A model generated the notes under the pieces. That model did not search any database. It was given only the letters and a program-made list of their open reading frames with translations, and had not been told where the DNA came from. The position numbers and the translations under genes are program-made. Positions 4,664 to 42,830 of a stretch of 42,830 bases of DNA are shown one piece after another; the first letter of the stretch is position 1, and every line of letters starts with the position of its first letter. This DNA comes from a virus, in IMG/VR virus record IMGVR_UViG_3300045988_095743, positions 1 to 42,830 of that record; one strand, 5' to 3'.

Positions 4664-4692
4664 TTGACAACAGCGGCGGTATGCGCTATAGT
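4664..4692 (+). promoter_or_regulatory. Sigma-70-type promoter (plus strand)
   Basis: TTGACA (4664-4669), a 17-nt spacer, then TATAGT (4687-4692). Confidence 0.65.
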
Positions 4693-33958: not shown

Positions 33959-34562
33959 GGGCCCGTTCCTGCTGTTCAGCCTTCATGCAGGCGCCGCAAA
34001 GCTCCGCCCCGAATTTGAGTTTGCTGTAAGTGCACATATCGGGGACGGTCCACAGGGTGCCGTCACGCTTTTCTACAGGCGTGATCTCCTTCCCGCATTT
34101 GGCGCATTTGGGCGGGATAGCCGCTTTCTTCTTGGCCGTGCTGGGCTCCGGCGTTTCTGCGTCCGGGTCCTTCATTTCCTCGGTAGGGATGCAAAACACC
34201 TGGAAAAATGCGTACTTCATGGCGATAGACATTGCCTTGTTGCTGGCCTTGTCGCCGCTGTCCATGCCCTCGCCGATAACCACGGCGGAAACGAATGTGC
34301 CATCCTCAGCGTAAAAGCTGTACTTGATCCGCATCACGGAGTACATCAGCGTACCGCCCTTGTTGGTCTGCCGCTCCTCCCGGCTCTGCTCCAGGACTTC
34401 CGGGACCACAAAAACCTTGTTTTTAGAGAGGATAGGTTGCAGGGCGTTCATCACATCATCGATGCCCCGGTACTTAAATCCCTGCTGCTGATTCTTCTTG
34501 TCCTTCCCGATGGCGGGAATTTCCTGCATGATGGCGGCGATGCTCTCATAGATGTTCATCAC
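33948..34562 (-). CDS. erf: Erf-family single-strand annealing protein with a C-terminal zinc ribbon (204 aa)
   Basis: FKYRGIDDV...GEGMDSGDKASNKAMSIAMKYA; CAKCG...CGAC. Confidence 0.8.
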   Translation of the reverse strand: MMNIYESIAAIMQEIPAIGKDKKNQQQGFKYRGIDDVMNALQPILSKNKVFVVPEVLEQSREERQTNKGGTLMYSVMRIKYSFYAEDGTFVSAVVIGEGMDSGDKASNKAMSIAMKYAFFQVFCIPTEEMKDPDAETPEPSTAKKKAAIPPKCAKCGKEITPVEKRDGTLWTVPDMCTYSKLKFGAELCGACMKAEQQERAHAG

Positions 34563-39095: not shown

Positions 39096-39160
39096 AACAC
39101 GACCTCCTCATGCCACGATATGCGGGAAACGCTTGTCTCCTGCGCATCTCCTTCTTGCGG

Positions 39161-39445
39161 TCAAACCTCAAACACGCGCCCCTGGGAGCGCAAAGCGTTG
39201 ACCAACTCATCATAGGCCGCGTTCGCCTCAGATTCCGTGGGGTAGAACTTGACCACCGTATAGCCCCGTTGCAAGGCAAACATTCTGATGCAATCGTAGG
39301 AGCGCCCAACTTTCGGAAGCTCCCCCTGCTTCAGCGGCTCGCGCGTCTTGGTGTTGACCAGGACTTCTGCGGGCTTTACGTAGATATCATCGCTCTCTCC
39401 CAGAGAGCAGCAACACATTCCCATGGGATTGTTGATGTAATTCAT
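39161..39445 (-). CDS. Hypothetical early protein (94 aa)
   Basis: Clean ORF with no motif recognised. Confidence 0.6.
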   Translation of the reverse strand: MNYINNPMGMCCCSLGESDDIYVKPAEVLVNTKTREPLKQGELPKVGRSYDCIRMFALQRGYTVVKFYPTESEANAAYDELVNALRSQGRVFEV

Positions 39446-39454
39446 GCTTCCTCC

Positions 39455-39658
39455 TTAGTCCTCCTCAATTATCGCCACAACCAAGCCAACGGCCGCCGCC
39501 AGCAAGAGGAGAAGCACGATGCAGAATAATACGCCGTTCTCCGTCCCAACGATCAACGCCGTAACAAGCATTAAAATGATGGCGACCGTAGCGGCTACCG
39601 CAATCGTTGCGCAACAAACCAAAAAGCACTTAATAAATCGCTTAATGAACCGCTTCAT
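39455..39658 (-). CDS. Small two-TM membrane protein (67 aa)
   Basis: Two long hydrophobic stretches. ATGA-type overlap with the Cro-like gene. Confidence 0.6.
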   Translation of the reverse strand: MKRFIKRFIKCFLVCCATIAVAATVAIILMLVTALIVGTENGVLFCIVLLLLLAAAVGLVVAIIEED

Positions 39659-39876
39659 GCCCCCTCACCCGCCCTTGCTTCTTGCGCCGCCCGGATGGCG
39701 GCGATGATCTCCTCGTCGGTGACGTGGTACAGCTTCGCCAGTTTGGGAACGAACTTGCTTGCGATGCCGTTGGCTCCTCGCTCCCACTGAGAAACGGCAT
39801 TCTGGGAAACGTACAGCTTCCGTGCGACATAGGGCTGTTTCAGCCCCGCCGCCTCCCGAAGCTCCTTCAATGTCAA
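39655..39876 (-). CDS. Cro-like XRE-family HTH protein (73 aa)
   Basis: TTG start 6 nt after AAGGAGGG. The ATGs at 39969 and 39909 have no RBS. HTH: QPYVARKLYVSQNAVSQWERG. Confidence 0.7.
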   Translation of the reverse strand: MTLKELREAAGLKQPYVARKLYVSQNAVSQWERGANGIASKFVPKLAKLYHVTDEEIIAAIRAAQEARAGEGA

Positions 39877-39910
39877 ATGAAACCCTCCTTTCAATATGAA
39901 GAACTTCATC

Positions 39911-39939
39911 TTGACAAACAGAGATACGGCCGCTATTAT
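39911..39939 (+). promoter_or_regulatory. Near-consensus sigma-70 promoter firing rightward
   Basis: TTGACA, 17 nt, TATTAT. Confidence 0.65.
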
Positions 39940-39990
39940 GTAAGTGTCAGCCAACAAAATATCGGTCATAGGCCCGCAGAACGGAGAAAT

Positions 39991-40010
39991 CCGAGGGGGC
40001 TTGGTTTTTT
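39991..40010 (+). terminator. Weak hairpin plus T6 (possible attenuator of the rightward transcript)
   Basis: CCGAG-GGGG-CTTGG, then TTTTTT. Confidence 0.35.
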
Positions 40011-40032
40011 GTTGCCTTGTGAAGTTCTGTAA

Positions 40033-40088
40033 GGCTATTATAGCCTACATAATGGTGGATGTCAATGGAATATCCGCCATTATGTAGG
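40033..40088. promoter_or_regulatory. Nested palindromes (candidate operators) over the leftward promoter
   Basis: GGCTAT-t-ATAGCC (40033-40045). CCTACATAATGG (40044-55) and CCATTATGTAGG (40077-88) form a perfect 12-bp inverted repeat, extendable to 17 bp. Confidence 0.6.
40037..40065 (-). promoter_or_regulatory. Consensus sigma-70 promoter firing leftward (early/lytic)
   Basis: The minus strand reads TTGACA (40065-40060), 17 nt, TATAAT (40042-40037). Confidence 0.7.
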
Positions 40089-40135
40089 ATTTTATGTTAT
40101 GTACAATATTCGCTTTTTTAATTTGGTGATTTTGT

Positions 40136-40837
40136 ATGCTTAATAGTTCTTTTAATATCTTGCGATCTACAGGCGCATACAATATTTTTGACGACGAATC
40201 AGTTTCTCTTGAAGAAAAAAATGCGGCATATTTAGAGATAAGAGAAAATGAGATTGCTCGGCTCAAAAACGCATACGATTTTGAAACCGTTCAAGGTATA
40301 CGAAGTATCCCGGTTCCTTGCCGGGAAGTTAACGGCGATTCTCCAACAGGAAGGGTAGAGTACTATCTTAGAGGCAAATGCTTTATTGACCATTGCAGGG
40401 CCGGGCACGTACAAATAGCCGTAGAATGCATTCGCAAGGCTCATAGTTTAATGTTTGTTTCTGATATGATATGGAAATATGATTCCTACATATCCGGAAT
40501 TTCTTGGTTGCATAATATTGGGGCGCATAAAGAAGCTTGGGAAGAAGAGCAAAGAGTTGATGAGCATTTTAAAAAAGAAGGATTTTACCCTCGTTTTTCT
40601 TTGTGGGATTTTTCAAGCCCATTGAAATATTTTGAATGGAAAAAAGAAATTAAGAAAATGGAAGAAGAGCGTTTACGAAAACGAAAACTTCGCCATGAGT
40701 ATTATTTATTGCAAGAAAAATTGCCGGAGTTGTGCCCAAAATCATTGGCAGGGTATTCAAGGATGAAAAATTCTAATACTAAGAATTATCAAAAGCTGAC
40801 AAAAATTGCTTTGCAGGCCGGAGTACAATTGGACTAA
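40136..40837 (+). CDS. Hypothetical AT-rich protein (233 aa), first gene of the repressor operon
   Basis: GGTGA lies 6 nt before the ATG. Composition is strongly AT-shifted relative to the rest of the genome. No motif recognised. Confidence 0.7.
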   Translation: MLNSSFNILRSTGAYNIFDDESVSLEEKNAAYLEIRENEIARLKNAYDFETVQGIRSIPVPCREVNGDSPTGRVEYYLRGKCFIDHCRAGHVQIAVECIRKAHSLMFVSDMIWKYDSYISGISWLHNIGAHKEAWEEEQRVDEHFKKEGFYPRFSLWDFSSPLKYFEWKKEIKKMEEERLRKRKLRHEYYLLQEKLPELCPKSLAGYSRMKNSNTKNYQKLTKIALQAGVQLD

Positions 40838-40850
40838 AGGAAAATTATAT

Positions 40851-41297
40851 ATGCCCAAAAAAATTAACAGCGTTTTGCTTAATAAAAGCAGCGTAAATTT
40901 AATTTCAGATTTTTGCAAAAGAAACGATATAAGCGAAGCGGCATTTTCAAGGAAATTTGGCAAAAACAATCGATGGATTAGTGATTTAAGAAGATGCAAA
41001 AATTTAAGCCTGCCTGACGCCGAAGAAGCCGCCCGCATGTGCATCCTCCTAGAAACCACCCCGGAAGAAATCCTGCTGCAAGAAGGAGAGACGGATGAAG
41101 AAACGGCCAAGTGCTTGGAGGATATCCAGAGGGTAAAAGAGCTGGTGGCGGAGCTGCGGAAAGAAGAAGCCCCCGATCCGAAGATCGAGGGCATTAGCGC
41201 AGAGCGTAAAGCGTTATTGGATATTGTTTATTCTCTTACGGATGAGCAATGTAGAAAGCTGCTTGGCGTAGTTTTGGAAGCAAAAAAACTAATGTAG
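40851..41297 (+). CDS. CI-like XRE-family repressor without a peptidase domain (148 aa)
   Basis: ATG 40851 follows AAAGGA. HTH ISEAAFSRKFGKNNRWISDLRR, then an acidic helical C-terminus. Confidence 0.65.
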   Translation: MPKKINSVLLNKSSVNLISDFCKRNDISEAAFSRKFGKNNRWISDLRRCKNLSLPDAEEAARMCILLETTPEEILLQEGETDEETAKCLEDIQRVKELVAELRKEEAPDPKIEGISAERKALLDIVYSLTDEQCRKLLGVVLEAKKLM

Positions 41298-41311
41298 AAG
41301 GAAATCAACAT

Positions 41312-41503
41312 ATGCCTGACTTACATTTTGAAATCCCCGAACTTGCCAAAGGCACTGTTATCCCACGCGGTGTGCAAGAATATATCAAGCTTCAAGACGA
41401 AAAGAGAGCCGCCGAAAAGAAAGCGCGCCTATACTTCTGGATCGGCATCGCAACCAGCATTCTTTGCGCGGTTGGCGGGTATTTGCTGGGCAAATTTTGC
41501 TAA
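41312..41503 (+). CDS. Small C-terminally anchored membrane protein (63 aa)
   Basis: GAAGGA RBS. TM segment LYFWIGIATSILCAVGGYLLG. Confidence 0.55.
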   Translation: MPDLHFEIPELAKGTVIPRGVQEYIKLQDEKRAAEKKARLYFWIGIATSILCAVGGYLLGKFC

Positions 41504-42594: not shown

Positions 42595-42830
42595 GTGAAA
42601 ATCCCAGAAGAAAAAATGCGGGCCGCATTATATATCCGGGTAAGCACGGAAGAACAGGCCCGCCACGGCCTGTCCCTGGGCGACCAGCGAGCCGCCCTTG
42701 AAAGCTACGCAAAGAGCCATAACATGACGGTAGTAGGCGTATATGAGGATGCTGGTATTTCCGCAAGAAAGCCATATAAAAAACGCCCCGCTCTTTTGCG
42801 GTTACTGGATGATGTGGAAGCAAAAAAAAT
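42595..42830 (+). CDS. int: Large serine recombinase, N-terminal 78 codons (continues at base 2 after the junction)
   Basis: GGAGGA lies 8 nt before GTG 42595 (alternative in-frame ATG at 42616). ALYIRVSTEEQ...GLSLGDQ is the catalytic-serine motif. The frame is in phase with 65..1222. Confidence 0.9.
   Translation, partial: MKIPEEKMRAALYIRVSTEEQARHGLSLGDQRAALESYAKSHNMTVVGVYEDAGISARKPYKKRPALLRLLDDVEAKK
42732..42830. repeat. Terminal direct repeat, copy 2
   Basis: Identical to bases 1-99. Confidence 0.95.

Follow-up and report, generated by a model that had tools for sequence, protein, structure and literature searches.

The viral DNA analyzed here, the 42,830-nucleotide (nt) IMG/VR record IMGVR_UViG_3300045988_095743 (hereafter, the window, meaning the whole stretch), holds between positions 39877 and 40135 what is predicted to be the conserved immunity-switch core of a temperate phage family of Oscillospiraceae. 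Taken as a whole, this region is best explained by an early lytic promoter that is operated by a repressor and opposed head-on by a self-contained antisense RNA gene, a reading to which we give a probability of roughly 55%. A preliminary description, made from the letters alone, had proposed a lysis-lysogeny switch in which two near-consensus promoters face each other among nested palindromes. The elements that carry the argument are the following, with coordinates in the window.

39655-39876, minus strand: Cro-like helix-turn-helix (HTH) protein of 73 amino acids (aa), with a TTG start; first gene of the lytic operon.
39877-40030, minus strand: early lytic 5′ leader of about 154 nt, from the predicted start to the TTG; near-identical in the closest relatives.
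39911-39939, plus strand: predicted rightward promoter P1, TTGACA-17-TATTAT, with a predicted start at about 39946.
39946-40012, plus strand: predicted small RNA of about 60-65 nt, bounded by P1 and the terminator.
39969-40010, plus strand: predicted intrinsic terminator, a two-tier hairpin (39969-40003), one G, and then U6 (40005-40010).
40065-40037, minus strand: predicted early lytic promoter, TTGACA-17-TATAAT, with the −35 at 40065-40060, the −10 at 40042-40037, and a predicted start at about 40030.
40044-40060, unstranded: putative operator O1, CCTACATAATGGTGGAT, a quasi-palindrome that fills the spacer of the lytic promoter and forms one arm of an inverted repeat.
40072-40088, unstranded: putative operator O2, ATCCGCCATTATGTAGG, upstream of the lytic −35 and inverted relative to O1, the two centers being 28 base pairs (bp) apart.
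40851-41297, plus strand: putative immunity repressor of 148 aa, whose N-terminus, an XRE-type HTH, is variable and whose helical remainder (middle and C-terminal part) is conserved.

Both promoters are present where the preliminary description had placed them, the leftward one at 40065-40037 and the rightward one at 39911-39939 within the leader, and their consensus scores are 12/12 and 11/12, respectively, each with a 17-bp spacer, which fits the sigma-70/sigma-A promoter class, with hexamers near TTGACA and TATAAT at a distance of 16-18 bp. In the whole 42.8-kb window, three sites on both strands reach at least 11/12, against 0.22 expected from 200 dinucleotide shuffles, and two such sites inside the 701-nt region were obtained in 0 of 2,000 shuffles. 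The face-to-face pair spans 155 bp. Its predicted starts, at about 39946 (plus) and about 40030 (minus), are convergent and lie about 85 bp apart, so that the transcripts would overlap by about 85 nt, as had been proposed; likewise, the estimate of a leader of about 150 nt agrees with the 154 nt or so measured from the predicted start to the TTG at 39876. The sole other near-consensus site in the genome is at 4664-4692 on the plus strand (TTGACA-17-TATAGT, 11/12), where it opposes the surrounding late genes. A plus-strand candidate at 40012-40041 (TTGCCT-18-TATTAT, 9/12) was rejected as a conserved promoter, its spacer being 19 nt in the major lineage.

These elements were followed in about 100 IMG/VR contigs, for which the Cro protein and two leader-derived DNA patterns served as queries, and in integrated prophages, which were found separately through a repressor homologue. 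More than 100 contigs from human-associated metagenomes represent the phage family. What the approximately 100 viral contigs and the integrated prophages have in common is a core of about 130 bp that extends between the rightward −35 and the leftward −10. Both flanks of this core are exchanged modules, repressor and operator on one side and cro alleles on the other; the core would thus be a recombination pivot for module exchange. The −35 and −10 positions of the lytic promoter stay in register across a mosaic junction, as seen first in five relatives and then in about 100. Since they are kept in every relative while the spacer and the upstream DNA are replaced, the leftward promoter is confidently predicted to be functional. 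Regarding P1, its −35 is invariant in 71 distinct core sequences, and its spacer, although variable in sequence, is always 17 nt long. The first search pattern included the −10 of P1; a repeat search used the terminator sequence alone, leaving the P1 region unforced, and returned P1 as TTGACA-17-TATCAT in one locus. In a divergent lineage, the position of P1 holds TTGACT-17-TACTAT with an upstream TG, and the transcribed sequence is otherwise different. Among the loci of this repeat search, the −10 reads TATTAT, TATCAT, or TACTAT. The convergent arrangement is kept among the relatives, this divergent lineage included, and the promoter-terminator unit is also found in the integrated prophages. 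Two distant Cro homologues (L005 and L006, with 41-44% identity) were set aside as comparators because their promoters are ordinary back-to-back ones and their intergenic regions are short.

The terminator lies 25-65 nt downstream of the predicted start of P1. In its lower stem, 39969-39975 pairs with 39997-40003, and its upper stem (CGGA-GAAA-UCCG) occupies 39982-39993; the whole hairpin (39969-40003) folds at about −16 kcal/mol, and a single nucleotide separates it from the T6 run. A weak hairpin plus T6 had been noted at 39991-40010, and the signal is real, but its 5-bp stem (39991-40004) belongs to this larger two-tier hairpin, so the preliminary description understated it. Conservation was assessed by per-variant folding and by covariance-model alignment, used instead of MAFFT with RNAalifold, which misaligned the inner stem when applied to the core. 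When folded one by one, all 34 distinct variants gave the same fold, with a mean free energy of −13.8 kcal/mol on the plus strand versus −8.3 kcal/mol on the minus strand, the plus strand being more stable in 31 of them. The upper stem carries compensatory changes (CGGA/UCCG, CGAA/UUCG, AGAA/UUCU, and ACGG/CCGU). Furthermore, in the covariance-model alignment (93 copies, 52 of them distinct), 91.8% of the cells are paired, against 74.6% when the minus strand is read, and pairing falls to 55-69% when the partner is slid by one column. Double changes number 17, versus 5.3 in shuffles, and none of 500 shuffles reaches the observed values. About one-fifth of the terminator pairs are G·U on the plus strand and would be A·C on the minus strand. 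Even in the divergent lineage, the hairpin has −15.2 kcal/mol on the plus strand versus −5.6 kcal/mol on the minus strand. From the conservation of the fold, the compensatory changes, and the strand asymmetry, we therefore predict that the hairpin is a plus-strand terminator for rightward transcripts, apparently selected not to stop the lytic transcript.

Together, P1 and this terminator most likely make up a self-contained RNA gene of about 65 nt, whose predicted product would be fully antisense to the lytic leader from about nt +20 to nt +85. Such an RNA had been put forward only conditionally, in case the hairpin terminates, and it now appears to be the better-supported product of P1, given the conserved and strand-specific terminator downstream. 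With the covariance model, a single copy was located in each of 93 of the 100 sequences searched, and the seven sequences without a match belong to the divergent L100 lineage. The model also finds the small RNA in five of five prophage loci. At gathering thresholds, Rfam returned nothing in the region; at an E value of ≤10, it returned generic hairpin matches to microRNA models, a 14-bit match to DUF2800, and a 12-bit match to Ysr206, none of them meaningful. The search of the phage genome for trans targets of the 5′ part of the small RNA returned its own locus only.

The second component of the proposed switch is the control of the lytic promoter. A perfect inverted repeat of 12-17 bp had been described around the −35, at 40044-40088. 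It is present, with arms at 40044-40060 and 40072-40088 and the −35 in an 11-nt loop, but 16 of the 17 positions match and only the outer 12 are perfect. An exact CCNCCATTATGTAGG occurs in the whole window at O1 and O2 only. To the right of the leftward −10, the relatives carry at least 16 unrelated sequence types, with the −35 in register in all of them. In every immunity type, two copies of that type's own 15-17-bp site, often palindromic, bracket the −35, one in the spacer and the other just upstream. Moreover, when the N-terminal 58 residues of the repressor were compared over 70 loci, 16 clusters corresponded approximately one-to-one with 16 operator types; the sole exception was a singleton N-terminal cluster with the same recognition region, which shares the operators of another cluster. 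Because operator types map in this way onto N-terminal types, the 148-aa XRE-fold protein is identified, with the confidence that sequence comparison allows, as the immunity repressor, and the "nested palindrome" as its two operators, O1 and O2. Since these bracket the −35 of the leftward promoter, the latter is predicted to be a repressor-controlled early lytic promoter. The idea that palindromes serve as the repressor site is thus upheld for the large inverted repeat, whose type co-varies with the CI-like N-terminus. Two further symmetric sites were evaluated.

40033-40045, unstranded: palindrome GGCTAT-T-ATAGCC across the leftward −10.
39930-39944, unstranded: O3-like site CCGCTATTATGTAAG, over the −10 of P1, differing from O2 at two positions.

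The leftward −10 does sit inside the first of these, as had been described, but it is only a tentative candidate for a separate site: the TATTATA at the −10 is symmetric by itself, and of the 24 combinations of 3-nt flanks seen in the relatives, 4 are complementary, with some matching changes and many changes without a match. The O3-like site was not accepted as a general operator, because the core in which it lies is present in every immunity type; any role that it has may be confined to the immunity type of the window. An additional operator-like site with two mismatches, CCGCCATCATGCAGG, is found on the minus strand at 34523-34537, inside the early region and far from the switch, and may be either a chance occurrence or a distal operator. 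In a divergent lineage (loci L100-L107; e.g., L100, 1650-1860), which has an operator of its own, half-sites of that operator (CTAGCA/TGCTAG) are found both at the lytic promoter and around and inside the spacer of the rightward promoter, where the repressor or another protein may also control the small-RNA promoter.

The way in which these parts would work together also involves two elements of the rightward arm.

40100-40107, plus strand: TGTACAAT motif, candidate −10 of a weak maintenance promoter next to O2.
40136-40837, plus strand: AT-rich cargo gene of 233 aa, first gene of the rightward operon.

In the proposed mechanism, the 148-aa XRE-type repressor would shut the lytic promoter through O1, in the spacer, and O2, upstream of the −35. 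The opposite strand of the 154-nt leader would encode the RNA of about 60-65 nt, made from P1 and ended at the terminator, which is perfectly complementary to the 5′ part of the leader and is presumed to be expressed. P1 is taken as constitutive and fires head-on at the lytic promoter from 85 bp away. The two units would then antagonize each other, both by transcriptional interference (polymerase collision and occlusion) across about 85 bp and by antisense pairing, the latter probably leading to cleavage of the duplex or to refolding of the leader around the Cro-like ribosome-binding site; that the small RNA acts by disturbing the leader fold is a conjecture. Acting together, the two antagonisms would be expected to sharpen the switch. 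Thus, in the lysogen, the repressor would silence the lytic promoter and the small RNA would mop up leaky lytic transcripts, and after induction, heavy lytic transcription across P1 would silence the small RNA. The weakest step concerns the cargo-repressor operon, whose transcripts may come from polymerases that read through the terminator, from a weak promoter at TGTACAAT, or from both.

It is important to consider the observations that weigh against this explanation. The base of the terminator stem is weak (U·G, A-U, and G·U) and the hairpin has internal loops, so a large read-through is possible. Double changes affect just 3 of the 12 pairs, no more than in shuffles, and because most of the relatives are closely related, shared ancestry inflates the covariation counts. 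Fold z-scores are modest, at −2.4 for 39946-40014, −1.2 for 39946-40012, and −0.9 for the whole leader, which folds no better than its shuffles; since the values for the small RNA (−1.2) and the leader (−0.9) are unremarkable, single-sequence folding decides nothing. The invariant TTGACAAAC of the plus strand also complements a segment engaged in pairing with the lytic leader's 5′ end, and the conservation of TTGACAAAC may therefore come partly from the other strand. Lastly, a strong separate promoter for the repressor operon was not found, the consensus scan yielding no other site of at least 10/12 upstream of 40136, and this favors P1 as the source of the repressor mRNA.

The explanation that profits from this last point is a true switch of the 186/P2 type, in which P1 would be the lysogenic promoter, with the cargo-repressor mRNA as its main product and the hairpin as a leaky attenuator, and in which the repressor, once bound at O1 and O2, would activate its own production by lifting the interference that the lytic promoter exerts. 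Relief of lytic-promoter interference activates the lysogenic promoter in coliphage 186/P2 and is reported to be used by P2-like phages (PMC5001618), and convergent promoters have been predicted in prophages of Clostridium clostridioforme (PMC11318856). The conserved face-to-face geometry and the predicted co-transcription of the repressor gene with the cargo gene fit this model as well. However, a conserved, plus-strand-specific hairpin with a U-tract, kept by compensatory changes, lies between P1 and the operon. P1 itself is near-consensus rather than weak, and it belongs to a core whose reassortment is independent of the repressor module. Polymerases moving rightward would also meet, and need to pass, two operators occupied by the repressor, and the conserved motif that keeps a fixed distance from O2 is another candidate promoter. 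Of the 186/P2-type switch proposed in the preliminary description, the convergent and conserved geometry consequently stands, whereas P1 is only a candidate for the repressor promoter. Because a conserved and strand-specific terminator follows P1, the antisense RNA of about 65 nt is better supported than a pure 186-type switch in which P1 makes the repressor mRNA, which is probably not what operates here; we judge the 186/P2 alternative unlikely, while taking it seriously.

A different possibility is that the core serves the lytic transcript only, as a structured 5′ leader that acts in cis, such as an element for stability, processing, or put-like antitermination, and that the promoter and terminator look-alikes of the plus strand are by-products. 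This possibility involves one more feature of the leader.

39891-39914, minus strand: hairpin directly 5′ of the Cro-like ribosome-binding site (inverted repeat I14), overlapping the complement of the P1 −35.

Nucleotides 40020-40028, at the 5′ end of the leader, are complementary to 39900-39908, a segment immediately preceding the ribosome-binding site, and this long-range pairing has −16 kcal/mol versus −8 kcal/mol in shuffles; another lineage has an equivalent pairing whose sequence is different yet complementary (GUGAGUU/AACUCAC). Additionally, the major cro allele has an equivalent of the hairpin in a different sequence (read from the alignment), so that two cro alleles have a hairpin next to the ribosome-binding site. 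These features would suit a cis-acting leader, but the central hairpin is much weaker on the minus strand, where the one-fifth of its pairs that are G·U on the plus strand turn into A·C, and the promoter hexamers hold their 17-nt spacing through a variable spacer. They also survive in the divergent lineage, which has a different leader without the long-range pairing. Neither a leader fold better than its shuffles nor a cis-element match in Rfam was obtained, and we consider a role restricted to the lytic transcript very unlikely. That the promoter-like and palindromic sequences are mere chance, with no regulatory role, is effectively refuted already: consensus scans alone are no evidence of function and the count of sites of at least 9/12 in the 3-kb region equals the shuffle expectation, but a pair of at least 11/12 within 155 bp was absent from all 2,000 shuffles, conservation is position specific in about 100 mosaic relatives, and the operators co-vary with the repressor.

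Under the favored explanation, a repressor-operated lytic promoter opposed by an antisense RNA gene, the role of the Cro-like protein deserves separate consideration. The 73-aa protein matches HTH_31 (E = 3e-11) and HTH_3 (E = 1.5e-10) as well as PHROG regulator families, and its most likely start, the TTG at 39876, is preceded, 6 nt upstream, by the ribosome-binding site AAGGAGGG. An in-frame ATG at 39969, which would give a 104-aa Cro, and a 47-aa plus-strand open reading frame at 39944-40087 were both rejected, being without a ribosome-binding site. Over 84 loci, 8 cro clusters and 18 operator clusters reassort freely; at least 11 operator types accompany a single cro allele, and 4 accompany the allele of the window. 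Because the Cro-like allele is not matched to the operators, a classical competition between Cro and CI is not expected, and recognition of O1 and O2 by the 73-aa protein is unlikely. Its target more likely lies in the invariant core or in the conserved part of the repressor.

The repressor belongs to a family of 685 homologues, some of them labeled as XRE-family regulators. Its AlphaFold model (predicted local distance difference test score of 83) has an all-helical C-terminal half, and its best fold matches in the PDB are all lambda-repressor-like HTH domains (XRE, lambda cI, and P22 c2), with probabilities of 0.9-0.99 and weak E values of 0.07-0.4. An S24 (LexA-like) self-cleavage domain was not found, there being no Pfam match to it and the C-terminal half being helical in the model. 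The repressor gene starts 13 nt past the stop codon of the cargo gene, whose 233-aa product has no Pfam match and has a 221-aa homologue in the same slot of related immunity types. Between O2 and the repressor gene, other relatives carry two kinds of protein with an Mrr_cat nuclease domain, a YidD-like protein with DUF4177, an FtsK/SpoIIIE-like ATPase, and several family-less proteins (slots compared: 40136-40837 in the window, 1805-2728 in L003, and 2088-2739 in L002, with equivalents in L012, L022, L024, and L027). The slot looks like a hot spot for defense or exclusion genes expressed in the lysogen. The GC content drops from about 0.55 to 0.33-0.38 over 40090-41010, that is, over the cargo gene and the first third of the repressor gene, encoding the N-terminal HTH, and returns to phage-typical values within the repressor gene. 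The block of operator, cargo, and HTH was probably gained as one unit by recombination inside the repressor gene. The TGTACAAT motif lies between O2 and the ribosome-binding site of the cargo gene; most operator types, the divergent lineage included, have it in the form TG[CT]ACAA[TA] at a distance of 37-41 nt from the leftward −35, despite different surroundings. The motif may act as a −10 for a weak maintenance promoter or, alternatively, bind a protein.

The wider setting is that of a complete temperate phage, which bears out the preliminary identification of a lysis-lysogeny control region. The genome measures about 42.7 kb and is circularly closed, since the end of the window (42732-42830) repeats its first 99 bp (1-99), and a large serine integrase (Resolvase, Recombinase, and Zn_ribbon_recom domains) crosses the junction, from about 42,6xx to 1222. 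Leftward is taken as the lytic direction because nearly all genes between 39876 and about 1300 are on the minus strand. Besides the AT-rich 233-aa gene, the 148-aa CI-like gene, and the integrase gene, the rightward arm encodes a small membrane protein and an HTH protein that bears a transmembrane segment. In integrated copies (L110-L113, 4955-6447, on bacterial contigs of 70-140 kb), the integrase gene overlaps by 4 nt the 3′ end of a Spo0A gene (Response_reg and Spo0A_C domains); since it abuts the end of that gene, an attachment site at the end of spo0A is suggested, and with it a spore-forming host. Matches in genome collections were limited to one metagenome-assembled genome of an uncultured Oscillospiraceae bacterium, and a BLAST search of 39100-41400 against 50,697 GenBank phages gave no match. 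Elsewhere in the genome, Rfam matches at the gathering level are a DUF3800-VIII RNA (27594-27657, minus strand, 46.5 bits) and a tRNA (27723-27795, minus strand, 67.4 bits), which adjoin each other upstream of the packaging genes.

Compared with known switches, the arrangement shares with 186 and P2 (pR-pL and Pe-Pc) a strong lytic promoter and an opposing promoter placed face-to-face at a short distance, with overlapping transcripts, a putative immunity repressor acting at the lytic promoter, and an expected mutual interference. In contrast to those phages, a conserved intrinsic terminator follows the opposing promoter here, so that a small RNA, and not the repressor mRNA, is the likely main product of that promoter. 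Each of the two promoters is close to the consensus, and the host is a Gram-positive anaerobe. No homology to CI or Apl of 186 or to C or Cox of P2 was detected, and Pfam, PHROG, and fold searches gave generic XRE-type HTH matches.

Among antisense RNAs of phages, P22 sar, which is antisense to ant, and c4 are of the same kind as OOP of lambda, which is antisense to cII. Precedents include lambda OOP and the superinfection-exclusion RNA STnc6030 of prophage BTP1 (PMC7067206). The predicted RNA resembles OOP, sar, and STnc6030 in being short, in having its own promoter and terminator opposite a lytic transcript, and in its expected presence in the lysogen. It differs in its target, which here is the untranslated 5′ leader of the early lytic operon, at the switch itself, whereas the targets there are a coding region or a distal gene. 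Moreover, its gene is a conserved pivot for the exchange of immunity modules and matches no Rfam family.

In the right operator region of lambda, the repressor operators overlap PR, and OR2 is the site from which the maintenance promoter PRM is activated. This region offers other parallels, namely, a repressor with an XRE/lambda-repressor-like HTH, two adjacent operators at the lytic promoter, operator-repressor pairs that set immunity specificity, and a possible weak promoter beside the distal operator. The center of O2 is at about −34 from the start predicted approximately 7 nt past TACAAT, a placement that invites comparison with the geometry of OR2 and PRM. Unlike in lambda, the repressor is without an S24 peptidase domain, there are only two operators, the Cro-like allele is unmatched to them, and a 154-nt leader and a convergent promoter are present. 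In the lactococcal phage TP901-1, MOR acts together with CI, the promoters are back-to-back, and no antisense RNA is known. The window shares with the CI/MOR system a small HTH protein that comes first in the lytic operon and need not compete for the repressor operators, and differs from it in its convergent promoters and predicted antisense RNA. An interaction of the 73-aa protein with the conserved part of the repressor would be pure conjecture.

A broader version of the favored explanation holds that, throughout the family, the antisense RNA would be a second control independent of immunity type, and that the Cro-like protein would silence P1 or bind the conserved middle of the repressor instead of competing at the operators; this extension is speculative and, at present, rather doubtful. 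Because the lytic leader is conserved over at least 16 repressor/operator types, the RNA made by a prophage could also target, in trans, superinfecting relatives whose immunity type is different. If true, an RNA layer independent of immunity, combined with a Cro-like protein that does not compete, would be a switch logic undescribed for any model phage.

To our knowledge, almost nothing is known experimentally about the choice between lysis and lysogeny in temperate phages of strictly anaerobic gut Firmicutes. The region analyzed here provides a concrete wiring diagram for such a choice, consisting of a repressor with two predicted operators, a consensus lytic promoter, a head-on antisense RNA gene, and a recombination pivot of about 130 bp, and the small antisense RNA gene predicted in it was previously undescribed. 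The cargo slot, predicted to be expressed together with the repressor, is a place to seek prophage defense genes. Furthermore, genetic parts for gut anaerobes could be drawn from the orthogonal repressor-operator pairs, of which nature offers at least 16 here on one shared promoter scaffold.

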